From Spirochaetia bacterium (GTDB taxonomy: Bacteria; Spirochaetota; Spirochaetia; SZUA-6; Bin103): DNA of 64,000 bases. The DNA lies in assembly GCA_965203055.1 (NCBI GenBank), contig OZ241863.1, forward strand, positions 960,001 through 1,024,000, given 5' to 3'. How positions within the stretch are numbered: the first letter of the stretch is position 1; every line of letters begins with the position of its first letter. The translations under genes and the position numbers were made by a program. Positions 8,782-24,340 of the stretch are shown here, in pieces. Below the pieces are notes generated by a model. The model was not told the DNA's origin, made no database searches, and saw only the letters and a list, made by a program, of their open reading frames with translations.

Positions 8782-8904
8782 ATGGCATACCGTAGTAGCG
8801 CAGCATGGGAGACGATTTGTCTTGGGGACGTTGCGGCTATCACCATGGGCCAGTCACCGCCGACGAGCTGCTCGCAACGAATGGGGCGCATTTCCCAAAT
8901 GTAG
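8782..8904 (+). pseudogene. N-terminal relic of a type I R-M specificity subunit (HsdS)
   Basis: Manual translation MAYRSSAAWETICLGDVAAITMGQSPP...; W-x4-LGDVA-x-I-x-MGQSP is the typical HsdS N-terminal signature; stops after 40 aa. Confidence 0.65.
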
Positions 8905-8973
8905 GTAAGCGACAGGCCGCTTGGCGGCCAAGCCCAAGTCCCAGTGTAAGATGACGTTTCTCGGCGATCTTGA

Positions 8974-10378
8974 TCACCGGTCTACCGGCGCCTGACGATC
9001 CTCGCTGGGGCGCCCGAATCCGGCGCCGGCGTGGCGGTAGCGGTGATGGGCGGCGCACAGCAGCCGGAGATTGTTCGGCTCGGCGGCGCCGCCGCAGGCA
9101 TACGGCACGACGTGATCGATCTGCAGCAGGTGTTCGGAGCCGCAGCGGCGCCCGCTGGTGCGGTCCACGTAGCGGCAACGGCCCCGGTCGCGCCGCCACA
9201 CCTCGCGCTTGACCGCCGCCGGGATGGCGCGGCCGGTCACGCCGCCGGCCTTCGCTGCCGAAGTTTCGGTCCGCGCCGGCGGCGCGGGCTGCGTCGCGCC
9301 CGCCGTCGCAGCCTGACGGCCGGGGCGCCGCGTCTTCGGCGCCGAAGTGGTGTCGCCCGCCGGTTTCACTGCCGGTTTCACCGCCGAAGTGTCCGGGCGG
9401 TCCGGGCCGCGGTTCGCCTGCAGCGGCGAAGCGGCTTCGTCTCCCGGCTGCGCCGGCGTCTGAGCCGATACCTTCGCCGCCGAAAGAGCGGCGCGGTTCG
9501 CGCTGACCTCCTGCTTCGCTGCCGAGGCGGCGCTGCGAGCCGAGGCCGCCTGCGTCTTCGGCGCCGAAGTTTGCTCGGCGCCTTTGGCCGGCGCGGTGCG
9601 CCGTCCGCGCGGCGGCCGGGCCGGATCGTGGCGGTCGAGACCTTCCCATACCAGCCGCCCCATGAGCTGCCCCATCGTCAGGTGCGGATCGACGTGGGAC
9701 AGGAGGCCCTTGAGCCGCTCCAAGCCGCGCCGGCACTCATCGTCGATCACCGCCTTGAGTTCCCAACGCCCGCCGCCCAGAGGCCGCACCCGATCCGCCG
9801 GCGCCGCCAGCTCCGGGTCCACCTCGGCCAGCAACTGCATCACCTCCCGGCTGCTCTTGCCGGACGCCTGCTCCACCAGCTCCCGCCGCGCCTCCGGGTC
9901 CAGCACCGCCGCCGGCGCCGGCTTCCGCTCCGCCGGCCGCGGCGGCGCCGAGCCGTTCTGCGACTGGGCGGCAGCCCCGAACCCGGCCCCGCCCGGCGCG
10001 CTACGCGCCGCCCGTTCCTTCTTGCGCTCCTGCCGGTCGAACGCATGCTGCAACTAGGCGGCCGCGTTCAGCGTCATCGAGCCATTCCCGCAGGCGCTCG
10101 CGCACGCCCTCCACGTCCGCGCAGAGGCGCATCGCCTTGATGCGCCGCCACGCCGCGGCGTCGCTGTAACCCAGCTCGCGCACCGCGTAATCGAACAGGC
10201 TCGAGAACCCGCGGCGCAGATACAGGCGGCGCTTATGAATCTCGCGCAGGTGGTCGATCACGACCACTTCGAGATGGTGTTCGATGCGGGAAAGTTCCTT
10301 GGTCCGCTCCAGCAGGCGGTCGTCTGAGAGGGCGGAAACGGTAGTGGTGACGGCCCCGACCGAACCCTGATTGTTCAT
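8974..10378 (-). pseudogene. HNH endonuclease with DUF222-like N-terminal domain, disrupted by a frameshift and a nonsense codon
   Basis: N-part LSDDRLLERT...GFSSLFDYAVRELGYS; C-part RDRGRC...LQIDHVVP...NNLRLLCAAHH; joined via a frameshift near 10088 and an in-frame TAG at 10054-10056. Confidence 0.85.
9250..9569. repeat. Seven copies of a 14-bp palindromic motif (consensus CTTCGGCGCCGAAG), mostly 42-bp period, inside the HNH gene
   Basis: Copies start at 9250, 9334, 9376, 9418, 9472, 9514, 9556; perfect palindromes at 9334 and 9556; they encode TSAxK-like motifs. Confidence 0.8.
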
Positions 10379-10384
10379 GACATA

Positions 10385-10413
10385 AGTATAACCATGGAAA
10401 CCACTTGAGTCAA
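10385..10413 (-). promoter_or_regulatory. Sigma70 promoter of the HNH gene (probably leaderless)
   Basis: TTGACT-N17-TATACT on minus strand; ATG lies 7 nt downstream; CTTGAgTCAAG palindrome overlaps the -35. Confidence 0.75.
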
Positions 10414-10500
10414 GTTCTTCGGCCTGGAATATGCCACCTGCGGGAGTGACTCGGCGGCGCATTTCCAAGCGGCTAGACGTTCCGTCAGATGCTGCTCGTT

Positions 10501-10572
10501 GTTGTTTCACCATGAGCGCGGCGCGGTACTCGTGGTACGCCTTTCCCGGCGGCGGCTTCGAGGGCGGGATCG
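10501..10572 (-). pseudogene. Short relic homologous to the C-terminal region of the large methyltransferase (23916-23980)
   Basis: 26-bp exact match ACGAGTACCGCGCCGCGCTCATGGTG plus flanking similarity; encodes GKAYHEYRAALMV vs GKAYYEYRAALMV. Confidence 0.8.
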
Positions 10573-10677
10573 GTACCAACAAATTGGAAGTGCGCCCCAA
10601 CGAATGGGTGCCCGTGACGCGGACCATGAGCGGTGCTATCATCGGGTAGCGATGAAGCAGCTTGATCGAGGTTCGTC

Positions 10678-20287: not shown

Positions 20288-23200
20288 ATGCCTGCATCTG
20301 ATCCGAACACGCGCGCGCACCTGGAATGGCTGGGGTTCATCCAGCCGCACGGTCTGGTGGTGTCGCCGCCGGCGCTGCTCAAGGCGGGCGCGTTCGTCAA
20401 CCGGCAGGATACCCACCGGCAAGCGCTGCTCGCCGGCTGCGCCGAGGAACGCGAGCTCGCTCCCGACCGGCCGCCCACCGCGTGCATCCGCGACTTCCGC
20501 GAGTTCGCCGGTACGGTGCTCGGCTGGGGATTCTCGCCCCGGGGCTACGCCGGCTTCACTGAAGAAACTCCGATCCCTGAAGAACTCACGCTGCCGCTGC
20601 CCGATTACGGCGAGACCCTGCGCCCCGACTTCGCGGTGCGCGAACGCGACCCGGCGAACGGCGACTCGCCGTGGCAACTGCTGGTGCAGGTGCTGGCCGC
20701 CGGCCAGGAGTTCGACCGTCCGGCGCCCGGCCCCGGCGGGCTGGACGCATCCGCCCAGGGGCGCGCGGAACGCCTGCTGCGCGCCACCGGGGTGCGCGCC
20801 GGCGTGCTGGTCAACGGAGTTGCGCTGCGCCTGATCTCCGCCCCGCACGGCGAGAGTTCCGGCTGGATGGATTTCCGCTTCGCCGACCTGCTCACCACCG
20901 CCGGACGCCCGCTCTGCTCCGCCCTGCACCTGCTTCTGTCCGAACAGCGCCTGCTGGCGTTGCCGCGCCATGAACGCCTCACCGCCGTGCTGGCCGACAG
21001 CCGCCTCTACCAGAACGAGGTCTCCGAGCGCTTGGCCGAGCAGGTGCTGCATGCGTTGTACGAACTGGTACGCGGCTTCCAGAACGCCCATGCCGCCACC
21101 GACGGCGCGCTGCTGAGCGAGCCGCTGGCCGCCGGCGGGGACCGCAACGCCATCTACCGCGGGCTGCTGACCGTGATCCTGCGGCTGGTGTTCCTGCTGT
21201 ACGCGGAGGAGCGCGGCCTGCTGCCGAAGGACGAGACCTTTGCGCGCCACTACTTGCTGGGAGGCCTCTACCGGCGGCTGCGCAAGGACGCTGCGGCCTA
21301 CCCGGACACGATGGATCAGCGCTATGGCGCCTGGGCGCAGTTGGTGGTGCTGTTTCGCCTGCTCCACGACGGGGTTGCGGCGGACCGCACCGGCGGCGCG
21401 GTGAGTCTGCCGGAGCGCCGCGGTGCGCTGTTCGATCCGGACCGCTACCGGTTCCTGGAAGGCCGTAGCGGCGGCGGGTCGCGGCAGCGGCATGCGCGGC
21501 TGGAGCCGCCGCGGGTGTCGGACGGGGTGGTCTACCGGGTGCTGGAAAAGCTGCTGGTGCTGGACGGGGAGCGGCTCTCCTACCGGACGCTGGACGTGGA
21601 GCAGATCGGCTCGGTGTACGAGACGATCATGGGGTTTCGGCTGGAGACCGCGACCGGGCGCTCGCTGGCGGTCAAGCCGGGCAAGAAGCTGGGCGCGCCC
21701 ACCACCATCGACCTCGACGCGCTGCTGGCGCAGCCTTCGGGGCGCCGCGGGCGCTGGCTGCAGGAGCGCGCCGACCGCCCCGTCAGCGCCGCGGTCGCCA
21801 AGGGGCTGCGCGCCGCGCGGACGGTGAACGACCTGCACGCGGCGCTGGACCGGGTGCTGGACCACGCTGCGACGCCGGACCTGGTGCCGCGCGGCGGGCT
21901 GGTGCTGCAGCCCAACGAGGAGCGGCGCCGTTCCGGCTCGCACTACACGCCGCGCGAGCTGACCGAGCCGATCGTGCGCCACACCCTGGCGCCGCTGCTG
22001 GAGCGGCTACGCGCCGCGGACGGCGGCGCGCCGCGCCCGGAGCAGGTGCTCGAACTCAAGATCTGCGATCCGGCGATGGGCTCGGGGGCGTTTCTGGTGG
22101 AGACCTGCCGCCAGCTTGCCGACGCGCTGATCGAGGCGTGGGCCGCGCACGGCGCCGCGCCCGACGTTCCGCCGGACGAGGACGAGGTGACCTTCGCGCG
22201 CCGGCTGGTGGCGCAGAAGTGTCTGTACGGCATCGACCGCAACCCGATGGCGGTGGACTTGGCCAAGGTGTCGCTGTGGCTGAGCACGCTGGCGCGCGAC
22301 CATCCGTTCACCTTCGTGGACCACGCCTTCCGCCGCGGCGATTCGCTCCTCGGGCTGACGCGGCGGCAGCTCGAAGCGCTGCACTGGCAGGGCGGGCAGC
22401 CGATCCTGGCCGGCTTCGGGGTGCGCGAGGCGATGGAACAGGCCGCGGCGTTGCGGCGCCGGATTCGGGAAGCGGACGACACCGTGACCGACCGGCAGTT
22501 GCAGCGTCTGTGGCGCCGCGCGCAGGACGCGCTGGCCGAGGTGCGGCGGTTCGGCGATCTGACGCTGGCGGCGTTCTTCGAGGGCTCGAAGCCGAAGGAG
22601 CGCGCGGCGCGTCTGGAGGCATATCAGGAAGCGATCCTGACGCGGCAGGCGCGGCGCTACGCCGCGGAGTTGAAGGCGCGCCGTAACGCCGAGGTGCCGT
22701 TTGCGCCGTTTCACTGGGAGATCGAGTTTCCGGAGGTGTTCGAGCGGGAGAACCCCGGCTTCGACGGCTTCGTCGGCAACCCGCCGTTCGCGGGCAAGAA
22801 CAACGTTGCCGCCGGCAACGTCGCCGGCTATCCGAGCTGGCTGAAGGAACTACACGCGCGGAGCCACGGCAACGCCGACCTGGTGGCGCACTTCTACCGG
22901 CGCGCGTTCGACCTGCTGCGCGGCGGCGGCGCGTTCGGTCTGATCGCCACCAACACGATCGCCCAGGGTGACACCCGTTCCAGCGGCCTGCGCTGGATCT
23001 GCGAACGGGGCGGGGAAATCTACCGCGCCGTCAAGCGCGTCAAATGGCCGGGCGATGCGGCGGTGGTGGTCAGTGTGGTGCACGTGGAGAAGGGGCAAGT
23101 TTGTCGGCAGAAGATGCTCGACGGCGTCCCGGTGGACCGCATCACCGCGTTCCTGTTCCATCGCGGCGGTCACGCCGACCCGGTGCGGCTTGCGGCGAAC

Positions 23201-24340
23201 GCCGGCAAGAGCTTTGTCGGGAGCTACATACTCGGCATGGGATTCACCTTCGACGACACCGACCGGAAGGGAGTCGCGTCATCGCTCGCCGAGATGCGGC
23301 GGCTGGTCGCTCAGGAACCGCGCAATCGGGAAGTGATCTTCCCCTACATCGGCGGCGAGGAGTTGAACACCGGCCCCACTCACGCGCCTCATCGCTACGT
23401 CATCAACTTTCACGACTGGCCCCTGCACCGGGCGAAGATCGGAGAATCGTGGGCCGCGGCTGACGCGGAGCGAAGGCGAGCGTTACGGCGCCGTCCGCTC
23501 GTGCCGCACGACTACCCCGGCCCGGTTGCGGCCGATTGGCCGGACCTGCTGAGAATCGTCGAGTCGAAGGCCAAGCCAGAGCGCGACGTTCAGAACCGTA
23601 AAGCACTTCGAGAGCGTTGGTGGCATTACGCCGAAAAGCGACCGGGCCTCTACGCCGCCATCGCTGGCCTGGACCGAGTGCTGGTAGTCTCCCGTGTCGG
23701 CCAACACGCGGCATTTACCTTCCTCCCAAGAGACATGGTGTACGCGGAATCCATGATCGTCTTTCCGTTGACTTCGTACGCCGCACTCTGCGCATTACAA
23801 TCCCGCCCTCACGAAGTTTGGGTCCGTTTCTTCGGATCGTCGCTGGAAGAACGGCTCCGCTACACCCCTTCCGACTGCTTCGAGACCTTCCCGTTCCCGG
23901 AAGGCTGGGAAACTCATCCCGACCTCGAAGCCGCCGGCAAGGCGTATTACGAGTACCGCGCCGCGCTCATGGTGGACAACGGCGAAGGCATGACCGGCAC
24001 CTACAACCGCTTCCACGACCTCTACGAGACCGACCCGCGCATCGCCGAGCTCCGCGAGATGCACACCGCCATGGACCGCGCCGTGCTCGACGCCTACGGC
24101 TGGACCGACATTCCCACCGCCTGCGGCCTCCTCCTCGACTACGCGATCGACGAAGCCTCCTGGGGCCGCAAGAAGAAGCCGTACCGCTGGCGTTGGCCCG
24201 ACGAAGTCCGCGACGAAGTGCTCGCCCGCCTCCTCGCCCTCAACGCCGACCGCGCCGCCGCCGAAGCCCGCGCCGGCACCGCCGCCGGCCCCTCGCCCGC
24301 TGCCGAAGGCGGAAGTGGACCGGATCATGCTATCGTCTGA
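20288..24340 (+). CDS. Large N6-adenine DNA methyltransferase, type IIG/Eco57I-like (resembles DISARM DrmMI)
   Basis: GSHYTP, ICDPAMGSGAF (motif I), GNPPF (motif IV), FHWEIEFPEVF, C-terminal RYTPSDCFETFPFP; 1350 aa. Confidence 0.88.
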   Translation: MPASDPNTRAHLEWLGFIQPHGLVVSPPALLKAGAFVNRQDTHRQALLAGCAEERELAPDRPPTACIRDFREFAGTVLGWGFSPRGYAGFTEETPIPEELTLPLPDYGETLRPDFAVRERDPANGDSPWQLLVQVLAAGQEFDRPAPGPGGLDASAQGRAERLLRATGVRAGVLVNGVALRLISAPHGESSGWMDFRFADLLTTAGRPLCSALHLLLSEQRLLALPRHERLTAVLADSRLYQNEVSERLAEQVLHALYELVRGFQNAHAATDGALLSEPLAAGGDRNAIYRGLLTVILRLVFLLYAEERGLLPKDETFARHYLLGGLYRRLRKDAAAYPDTMDQRYGAWAQLVVLFRLLHDGVAADRTGGAVSLPERRGALFDPDRYRFLEGRSGGGSRQRHARLEPPRVSDGVVYRVLEKLLVLDGERLSYRTLDVEQIGSVYETIMGFRLETATGRSLAVKPGKKLGAPTTIDLDALLAQPSGRRGRWLQERADRPVSAAVAKGLRAARTVNDLHAALDRVLDHAATPDLVPRGGLVLQPNEERRRSGSHYTPRELTEPIVRHTLAPLLERLRAADGGAPRPEQVLELKICDPAMGSGAFLVETCRQLADALIEAWAAHGAAPDVPPDEDEVTFARRLVAQKCLYGIDRNPMAVDLAKVSLWLSTLARDHPFTFVDHAFRRGDSLLGLTRRQLEALHWQGGQPILAGFGVREAMEQAAALRRRIREADDTVTDRQLQRLWRRAQDALAEVRRFGDLTLAAFFEGSKPKERAARLEAYQEAILTRQARRYAAELKARRNAEVPFAPFHWEIEFPEVFERENPGFDGFVGNPPFAGKNNVAAGNVAGYPSWLKELHARSHGNADLVAHFYRRAFDLLRGGGAFGLIATNTIAQGDTRSSGLRWICERGGEIYRAVKRVKWPGDAAVVVSVVHVEKGQVCRQKMLDGVPVDRITAFLFHRGGHADPVRLAANAGKSFVGSYILGMGFTFDDTDRKGVASSLAEMRRLVAQEPRNREVIFPYIGGEELNTGPTHAPHRYVINFHDWPLHRAKIGESWAAADAERRRALRRRPLVPHDYPGPVAADWPDLLRIVESKAKPERDVQNRKALRERWWHYAEKRPGLYAAIAGLDRVLVVSRVGQHAAFTFLPRDMVYAESMIVFPLTSYAALCALQSRPHEVWVRFFGSSLEERLRYTPSDCFETFPFPEGWETHPDLEAAGKAYYEYRAALMVDNGEGMTGTYNRFHDLYETDPRIAELREMHTAMDRAVLDAYGWTDIPTACGLLLDYAIDEASWGRKKKPYRWRWPDEVRDEVLARLLALNADRAAAEARAGTAAGPSPAAEGGSGPDHAIV

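Follow-up and report, generated by a model that had tools for sequence, protein, structure and literature searches.

Why should a short palindrome be repeated at regular distances inside a coding sequence, and is it there as peptide or as nucleic acid that selection maintains it? This question is raised by a 64,000-nucleotide stretch of the genome of a Spirochaetia bacterium (assembly GCA_965203055.1, contig OZ241863.1, positions 960,001 to 1,024,000; this whole stretch is called the window below), in which a 14-bp dyad occurs seven times within a gene related to HNH nucleases. The gene is a broken copy of one encoding a protein of about 455 aa, in which a disordered linker joins a helical N-terminal module to an HNH domain, and it is carried by a repeated cassette of 1.72 kb. 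The dyads lie in the part that encodes the linker. We argue that they are very probably kept as nucleic acid and not only as peptide, and the case for a DNA signal concealed within the coding sequence of a disordered linker is an unusually clear one. Tentatively, they could be duplex sites for a dimeric protein, for which the product of the cassette itself is a candidate.

The seven copies of the 14-bp motif start on the plus strand at positions 9250, 9334, 9376, 9418, 9472, 9514 and 9556, with start-to-start gaps of 84, 42, 42, 54, 42 and 42 bp, and in this order they carry 2, 0, 3, 3, 2, 3 and 0 mismatches to CTTCGGCGCCGAAG. Numbered in gene order, they are the following.

9556-9569: palindrome copy 1, CTTCGGCGCCGAAG, encoding TSAPK, exact
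9514-9527: palindrome copy 2, gene strand CCTCGGCAGCGAAG, ASAAK, 3 mismatches, the sole copy without a preceding T
9472-9485: palindrome copy 3, gene strand TTTCGGCGGCGAAG, LSAAK, where most paralogs have PSAAK
9418-9431: palindrome copy 4, weak, ASPLQ, only the CTTCG arm retained, in a 36-nt insertion of few paralogs
9376-9389: palindrome copy 5, gene strand CTTCGGCGGTGAAA, TSAVK, adjoining a 12-nt duplication specific to a few copies
9334-9347: palindrome copy 6, CTTCGGCGCCGAAG, TSAPK, exact
9250-9263: palindrome copy 7, gene strand CTTCGGCAGCGAAG, TSAAK

When up to 3 mismatches are allowed, the window contains 33 matches to this motif against 10.66 expected, a number reached in none of 100 shuffles, and seven of the 33 are packed into 320 bp. 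The strict dyad TTCG-N4-CGAA occurs five times in the window (1.18 expected), and four of these occurrences are inside the array. On the gene strand, which is the minus strand, the motifs are read in frame as ACT TCG GCN NCG AAG, i.e. T-S-A-x-K, and a codon ending in T precedes TCG in six of the seven copies, the exception being GCC in the copy at 9514. The initial annotation, made from the letters of the window, had listed the seven positions with their gaps, the in-frame peptide and the preference for a T-ending codon, and all of these observations were borne out. A caveat concerns the copies at 9376 and 9418, which are weak (3 mismatches each) and lie within insertions found in a few paralogs only. 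Tandem Repeats Finder did not report the 42-bp array in the window, hence the spacers between the motifs are not alike.

The evidence that carries the argument comes from distant homologs. Within the same bacterial family, 20 of 23 other genomes contain the cassette gene family; among 17 genomes from further families of the order, two gave matches, which are weak. A sample of 51 loci from 13 other genomes was reduced to 42 genes from 12 genomes, with 45-63% identity to the reference paralog (tblastn), after removal of five loci whose alignment fell short of the HNH domain, two duplicates, one fragment and one near-identical sequence. Motifs in these 42 homologs were defined by peptide alone, as xS[AP][APVT]K, which gave 87 motifs. 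Of 62 Thr residues that stand before Ser, 60 are encoded by ACT, compared with 12.3% elsewhere in these genes, and where Pro takes its place the codon is CCT in 12 of 12 (background 7%). For the motif Ser, TCG is used in 85 of 87 motifs (background 33%), and the fourth motif codon is NCG in 83 of 87, the background being 49% GCG among Ala codons and 69% CCG among Pro codons. The motif Lys is AAG in 81 of 87, with a background of 85%. A T followed by TCG is present in 78 of the 87 motifs, with all 12 genomes represented. The comparison of orthologs that had been proposed in the initial annotation thus found the synonymous sites of the motifs conserved, and not free to vary.

Genome-wide codon context was rejected as the cause of the ACT-TCG pair. 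Outside the cassettes, ACT makes up 4.0% of the Thr codons of the host genome, and only 101 of 2285 T-S dipeptides are encoded by ACT-TCG. A further comparison was made with 82 conserved amino-acid columns of the domains, for which the frequency of the commonest codon averages 0.71 and reaches 0.9 in 11% of the columns. Synonymous sites in the motifs are therefore far more conserved than those of conserved domain positions.

The paralogs of the host genome were examined in the same way. Fifteen cassette copies pass a filter for an intact frame of 430-480 aa. Among these, the ratio of nonsynonymous to synonymous polymorphism (pN/pS) is 0.24 in the domains versus 1.05 in the linker spacers, and pS is 0.060 in motif codons versus 0.11-0.12 elsewhere. 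In an alignment of the linker from 39 copies, nucleotide diversity (pi) amounts to 0.022 in the dyad arms, 0.064 in the dyad centre, 0.100 in the spacers and 0.051 in flanking domain columns, and the chance that random domain columns are as low in pi as the arms is small (P 0.004). Judged from these alignments, the linker spacers are evolving neutrally.

The consensus of the dyad is CTYCG-N4-CGRAG, with uninformative flanks. A search at the DNA level, tolerating at most one arm mismatch, placed 144 of 146 sites in one frame, and all but one of the sites listed fall within the linker stretch. The central four bases vary (GCGC 60, GCGG 28, CCGG 9, CCAG 8, and others). A larger set of 87 distinct genes was then used, in which the linker could be delimited in 64, the 23 without anchors being left out. 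Perfect 5-4-5 palindromes in the motif frame have CTTCG as their arm 123 times, CTCCG 23 times and little else, and those in the other two frames number 24 and 21 in total. The variant CTCCG-N4-CGGAG, with its 23 perfect copies, encodes T-P-x-x-E: Ser is replaced by Pro and Lys by Glu, and both arms change together. The corresponding two-by-two table of arm types (123/10/33/23) gives a Fisher p of 1.5e-7, which overstates independence as many of the sites are orthologous. The peptide-defined motifs of this second type, xP[AT][APS][KE], number 67, and in 57 of them the preceding codon ends in T versus a background of 8.1%. Hybrid sites of the form CTCCG..CGAAG were counted 33 times, at recurring linker positions in many genes and several genomes. 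As for the host genome, the cassettes make up 1.7% of its DNA and contain 215 of its 254 CTTCG-N4-CGAAG sites, as well as 67 of its 71 exact 14-mers.

Because distant homologs keep the same codons, because a variant that changes the peptide keeps the dyad, and because the spacers behave as neutral sequence, it is very probable that the palindrome is under selection at the level of nucleic acid and not of the peptide only. The earlier suggestion that selection acts on DNA or RNA beyond the peptide is strongly supported by these three observations.

How the sites are arranged is less strict than their sequence. Between 3 and 8 sites per gene are present in 62 of the 64 genes. The commonest distance between sites is 42 bp (36 of 200 gaps), and multiples of 42 account for 59 of the 200; other frequent gaps are 81 (25), 84 (19), 114 (13), 78 (12) and 75 bp (10). 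The 42-bp lattice is preferred without being obligatory. Compared with one another inside a gene, spacers are hardly more similar (0.378) than codon-shuffled controls (0.351), and pairs with an identity of 60% or more make up 7% versus 1% in the controls, which indicates a few recent spacer duplications.

What could such sites be for? The reading that we favour, at somewhat less than an even chance, is that the dyads are double-stranded DNA sites for a protein with two-fold symmetry, i.e. a dimer. It is suggested by the invariant 5-bp arms, whose centres are 9 bp apart, by the free 4-bp centre and by the transitions tolerated at one position of the arms. Recognition of half-sites is preferred over stems of RNA or single-stranded DNA since hybrid sites, which are not expected to fold, recur at fixed positions: the calculated folding energies are -4.8 to -8.4 kcal/mol for perfect copies and -0.1 kcal/mol for the hybrid CTCCG..CGAAG. 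Among the possibilities raised in the initial annotation, self-binding sites are the best candidate. In the mechanism that we propose, the dyad would be kept as nucleic acid within the disordered and freely evolving linker of a passenger gene, and the binder would be the cassette's own protein, acting through a segment that resembles either ribbon-helix-helix (RHH) proteins or KorB and ParB. This protein is the obvious candidate because both kinds of segment are predicted in it. Each gene copy would carry 3-6 docking sites for its own product, and docking could be used for autoregulation, for titration of the nuclease, for loading in cis or as a roadblock. Since no dyad was seen near the promoter, titration, loading in cis or a roadblock would be favoured over a classical operator. 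An extension of this mechanism, which we regard as unlikely, is that the linker is the coding carrier of a cis array by which the nuclease recognises its own copies genome-wide. A selfish passenger gene would in this way recognise itself or count its copies, through titration of the nuclease by copy number or through copy-to-copy repair. Protein and site would in that case co-diverge into subfamilies, a W-type with CTTCG arms and a Y-type with CTCCG arms, named after a residue in the predicted RHH strand.

The predicted folds behind this candidate binder were obtained from an AlphaFold2 model of an intact paralog, built from 25 sequences. The model has a confident helical module at residues 19-126, a second small domain at 150-240, a linker at 248-370 with a predicted local distance difference test score (pLDDT) below 50, and then the HNH domain. 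A Foldseek search against the PDB returned nothing at E<=0.001, and a sequence profile search of the PDB gave matches to HNH domains only. For exhaustive structural alignment, both the whole model and a separate one of the N-terminal 244 residues were used; scores below the aligner's caution line of Z 8 may reflect common arrangements. With residues 30-180, the DNA-binding domains of KorB, ParB, Spo0J, VirB and SopB are near the top at Z 4.6-6.1, below that line (KorB 8qa8_A Z 6.1 over 99 residues, ParB-parS 6s6h_B 6.0, KorB-operator 5.4, SopB 4.6), and unrelated helical proteins score alongside them. The predicted RHH-like segment at residues 187-242 comprises strands at 187-197 and helices at 203-216 and 225-240. 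It resembles TraM (Z 6.5, root mean square deviation 2.2, 48 of 50 residues) and further the RHH of PutA (4.9), NikR (4.9) and CopA (4.7), all below Z 8, and it is without a Pfam match. The KorB/ParB-like and RHH-like folds are weak but coherent leads given by models, not findings. Pfam and NCBIfam recognise the HNH domain alone, and DUF222 (PF02720) gives no match at E<=1. Among the ESM-feature neighbours of residues 1-250 are DUF222 clusters (score 0.95), with DUF222 on 12% of the members. Of the domain layout that had been proposed, the position of the array in a linker (about 9229-9621) before the HNH domain (PF01844) therefore stands, but the DUF222-like label has no Pfam match at E<=1 behind it and finds an echo among the ESM neighbours only.

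The N-terminal module has 11,783 database representatives at E<=0.001. A distant homolog among database representatives, P0206, 36-38% identical to the copies of this genome and of AT-rich-looking composition, has six tandem 14-residue repeats, LTSSEKSASHTKEL, at the equivalent position of the linker. This hints that the 14-codon unit is ancestral to a wider protein family. A scan of metagenomes turned up no relative, and none of 400 other Spirochaetota genomes sampled has a match at E<=1e-20.

Several points weigh against duplex sites for the cassette's own protein, or against parts of this proposal. The peptide may be under some constraint too, given the A that precedes the dyad (65%) and the preferred Thr. 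The spacing does not follow the helical phase strictly, the gaps of 81, 78, 75 and 114 bp being common as well. The fold matches all stay below Z 8, and Foldseek was empty at its threshold of E<=0.001. Trp in the predicted RHH strand goes with CTTCG arms (136 vs 5) and Tyr mostly with CTCCG arms (64 vs 24); this link corresponds to only two changes on the tree, with one or two independent pairs, and is without statistical weight. No conserved dyad near the promoter was seen by eye in 69 homolog upstream regions. The binder could be a host protein instead. Finally, the sites of the W-subfamily, to which the window gene belongs, are good hairpins with the energies given above for perfect copies, and an RNA role is possible there.

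Such a role would consist of hairpins with a 5-bp stem and a 4-nt loop in the mRNA or in an antisense RNA, acting on ribosome pausing between the domains, on transcript stability or through protein binding, and as a general explanation we hold it to be rather unlikely. The perfect copies do fold, the linker RNA folds better than its shuffles (z -2.9) and the compensatory pair CTCCG/CGGAG is present 23 times. However, the arm sequence is invariant, without free covariation, and the commonest imperfect form is the C.A mismatch of the 33 hybrid sites, with hardly any folding energy, vs 10 sites compatible with wobble pairing. When the whole linker is folded the copies pair mutually, not locally, no antisense promoter-like site is found within the cassette, and there is no Rfam match at gathering score, the only one at E<=1 being CcsR1 (17.8 bits vs a gathering score of 65.3). 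Alternatively, the HNH nuclease, or a restriction-type enzyme, could cleave or nick the DNA at the dyads, with repair templated by other copies homogenising and maintaining the family. There are dimeric HNH enzymes with short palindromic targets, the family is similar within a genome (76-100% protein identity among the listed database relatives) and some indels between paralogs end in motifs. This reading is nevertheless quite unlikely in our estimate: self-cutting sites would be costly in each copy, and the spacer diversity (pi 0.10) opposes strong homogenisation across the array. The indels are also relevant to a very unlikely explanation without any binder, according to which the motifs are sites of recombination or slippage that yield useful linker-length variants, or that are corrected as quasi-palindromes by template switching. 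Some paralog deletions indeed run from motif to motif, e.g. in c1686003p and c4150790p, and the excess of similar spacers within genes (7% vs 1% of pairs) is in line with it. Other deletions, however, end at unrelated short repeats, identities of 15 nt are short for homologous recombination, and template switching restores symmetry but cannot fix one arm sequence across sites and 12 genomes. The recombination sites envisaged in the initial annotation thus have some deletions in their favour, which look like a by-product and not like the reason for conservation.

A pure peptide repeat would be a degenerate 14-residue tandem repeat with a TSAxK core that matters as protein, its codons being left from duplication. 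The predominance of the 42-bp gap (36 of 200), the six repeats of P0206 in the equivalent place and the preferred Thr before the dyad would fit, but rare codons are kept at 45-63% identity while conserved residues elsewhere vary their codons, and the changes of Ser to Pro and Lys to Glu are tolerated while the DNA symmetry is kept. This reading is highly improbable and, as far as the codon data speak, already contradicted. The chance is close to negligible for a CRISPR-like or guide-RNA array, or for an overlapping reading frame. The layout resembles repeats and spacers, and another frame reads xFGxE through the motifs. The guide-RNA array considered in the initial annotation found no support all the same: the same spacers stand at the same positions in 39 paralogs and are translated, and they have no full-length match outside the cassettes in the genome, nor in phages or plasmids. 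The best host match outside the cassettes covers 35 nt at 89% identity, for a spacer of 70 nt, and the linker and its 28-mers, which it had been proposed to compare with phage, plasmid and host DNA, gave no match in phages or plasmids. An overlapping open reading frame (ORF) as a general cause was rejected, as the other two linker frames contain stops in 12 and 9 of 23 homologs; this test covered 23 of the 42 homologs, the 19 without anchors being left out.

How does this array of putative duplex sites compare with known systems? Arrays of palindromic sites for ParB-family helix-turn-helix dimers are known from sopC of plasmid F, with its 43-bp units, and from the KorB operators of RK2. They share with the array described here a short dyad, conserved arms and a regular spacing of about four helical turns, and the best fold matches of the N-terminal module are the DNA-binding domains of KorB, ParB and SopB, weak as these are (Z at most 6.1). 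In contrast, those arrays are non-coding and their binding is proven, whereas here the array is read in frame as a linker, and the CTPase and dimerisation domains of their proteins are not seen in the cassette protein. Lin and Grossman are said to have found in 1998 a parS site inside the coding sequence of spo0J (parB) in Bacillus subtilis. This would likewise be a palindromic site in the coding sequence of the binder's own gene, binding being only proposed in our case. There, however, the gene is a chromosomal partition gene and the site stands alone in a structured region; here, a mobile passenger gene has a lattice of 3-8 sites in the part that encodes its disordered linker.

Other resemblances concern the protein, the element or the layout. 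The REP13E12 (DUF222-HNH) genes of Mycobacterium tuberculosis are also multi-copy, with a helical N-terminal module and a C-terminal HNH domain, but the copy number here is much higher, the inverted repeats are of the ISKra4 type and Pfam DUF222 is absent at E<=1. We know of no palindrome array described for REP13E12, and no search was aimed at this. Mobile insertion cassettes have in common with the present one inverted repeats that match an insertion sequence (IS), the lack of an internal transposase, target duplications and many copies; different are the nuclease passenger with its conserved internal dyad array and the occurrence at 66 places vs about 7 for the IS. CRISPR arrays similarly have short palindromic repeats and unlike spacers of similar length. 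They are non-coding, however, with cas genes next to them and with spacers that are acquired one by one, differ from array to array and match foreign DNA. Their direct repeats measure about 23-50 bp, compared with a 14-bp core here whose flanks carry little information, and the array here is in frame within an ORF, with spacers that are inherited with the gene and for which no target was found. PARCELs, according to PMC2996958, are 25-residue amphipathic domains of membrane proteins in which the whole unit is conserved. They too are tandem intragenic repeats with dyad-symmetric DNA in ORFs associated with mobile elements (PMC2996958); the unit here, in contrast, has 14 codons, is predicted to be disordered and conserves only its 14-bp core while the rest drifts. 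By analogy, the nearest systems in mechanism would be the ParB-family site arrays and parS in spo0J. The nearest protein family is that of the DUF222-HNH repeat genes and the nearest element type is the mobile insertion cassette. A full-text literature search at survey level returned no description of such an array.

The array is a clean natural case of a cis-acting nucleic-acid signal at a place where the protein sequence is indifferent, and with hundreds of copies in at least 13 genomes it is open to comparison. If the cassette's own product is the binder, it would show by what means a nuclease gene, travelling as a passenger on a very successful non-autonomous cassette, controls or targets itself, and it would provide a defined protein-DNA pair, a 14-bp dyad and a small RHH or helix-turn-helix module, that is easily tested. 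For annotation, the case shows that hidden DNA elements can be revealed where a disordered linker is under strong synonymous constraint.

The gene copy in the window is a pseudogene, as established by pairwise alignment with an intact paralog: it has one base too many at about 10089 and reads TAG in frame at 10054-10056. It is still open through the linker and the HNH part. The features of the gene and of the cassette that surrounds it are given below.

10090-10378, minus strand: N-terminal part of the gene, ending at the +1 frameshift at about 10089 (alignment with the intact paralog)
10054-10056, minus strand: in-frame TAG where the intact copy has CAG, second lesion of the gene (paralog alignment; one TAG within the genome-search match)
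8974-10053, minus strand: open remainder of 359 aa, with the end of the helical module, the RHH-like segment, the linker and the HNH domain
9622-9792, minus strand: predicted RHH-like segment (RVRPL...RHDP), from models of the intact paralog, residues 187-242
9229-9621, minus strand: disordered linker of 131 aa that holds the palindrome array (pLDDT and spacer pN/pS)
9031-9147, minus strand: HNH nuclease domain (PF01844, E 1.6e-06, 28.6 bits vs a cut-off of 21.4)
10385-10413, minus strand: sense promoter TTGACT-17-TATACT, its -10 box ending 6 nt before the ATG at 10378
8882-10599, minus strand: 1.72-kb cassette with the HNH gene, of the mobile-insertion-cassette type (repeat coverage profile and copy list)
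8882-8907: 3' terminal inverted repeat of the cassette, as oriented with the gene, 26-nt arms, 81% complementary
10574-10599: 5' terminal inverted repeat of the cassette, as oriented with the gene, 26-nt arm
8877-8881, with its partner at 10600-10604: putative target-site duplication of 5-7 bp with an ACGAA core, a direct repeat across both junctions

As the -10 box ends 6 nt before the ATG, the mRNA of the HNH gene is probably leaderless. A -10-like box at equal distance is present in most of the 69 homolog upstream regions (seen by eye, uncounted). The host genome is a metagenome-assembled genome of 4.56 Mb with 68.8% GC. The cassette protein matches 78 places in it, and blastn finds the cassette at 66 places, 32 of them near full length. 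The flanks of the copies are unrelated, and duplications of 5-7 bp were seen at several copies (by eye, with no systematic count). The inverted repeats of the cassette are common to an element of 1.52 kb with about 7 copies, and the four ends align over about 25 nt. The ORF of this element is an ISKra4-family transposase (NF033572, 214.6 bits vs a cut-off of 205). No transposase is present within the cassette, and for its single long sense ORF Pfam and NCBIfam give no match other than HNH. Because its inverted repeats are those that bound the ISKra4-family IS, the HNH unit is a non-autonomous passenger cassette, presumably moved in trans. The dyad is absent from the autonomous IS with matching inverted repeats, even at one mismatch; therefore, the array is a property of the HNH gene, not of the machinery for transposition, and a role of the dyad as a transposase-binding enhancer was rejected.

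The ISKra4-family IS, with its 467-aa DDE transposase, lies outside the window at G000:C1:273723-275245 (locus L148) and in about six further copies. It is the likely mobiliser of the cassette in trans, going by the shared ends, and the cassette is about ten times commoner than the IS. The 5' segment of the cassette (10495-10570) is homologous to GKAYYEYRAALMV, from the C-terminal coding region of type IIG methylase genes of the MmeI/Eco57I type. One such methylase is encoded in the window itself, by an ORF of 1350 aa at 20288-24340 (Pfam Eco57I, MmeI_Mtase and MmeI_TRD), where the homologous stretch is at 23916-23974. The cassette thus seems to have captured the 3' end of a type IIG methylase gene along with the HNH gene. 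In 11 of 34 cassette copies a TTGAC box follows 13-27 nt past the 3' end, compared with 58 of 5000 random windows. The copies show a tendency to lie directly upstream of -35-like boxes, which suggests promoter-proximal targeting or selection. Lastly, a GC-rich hairpin, GGCCGCTTGGCGGCC on the plus strand, is located at 8911-8935 of the window, between the stop codon and the 3' inverted repeat. It has no T-run and so is not a classical terminator, and it is kept in nearly all copies.

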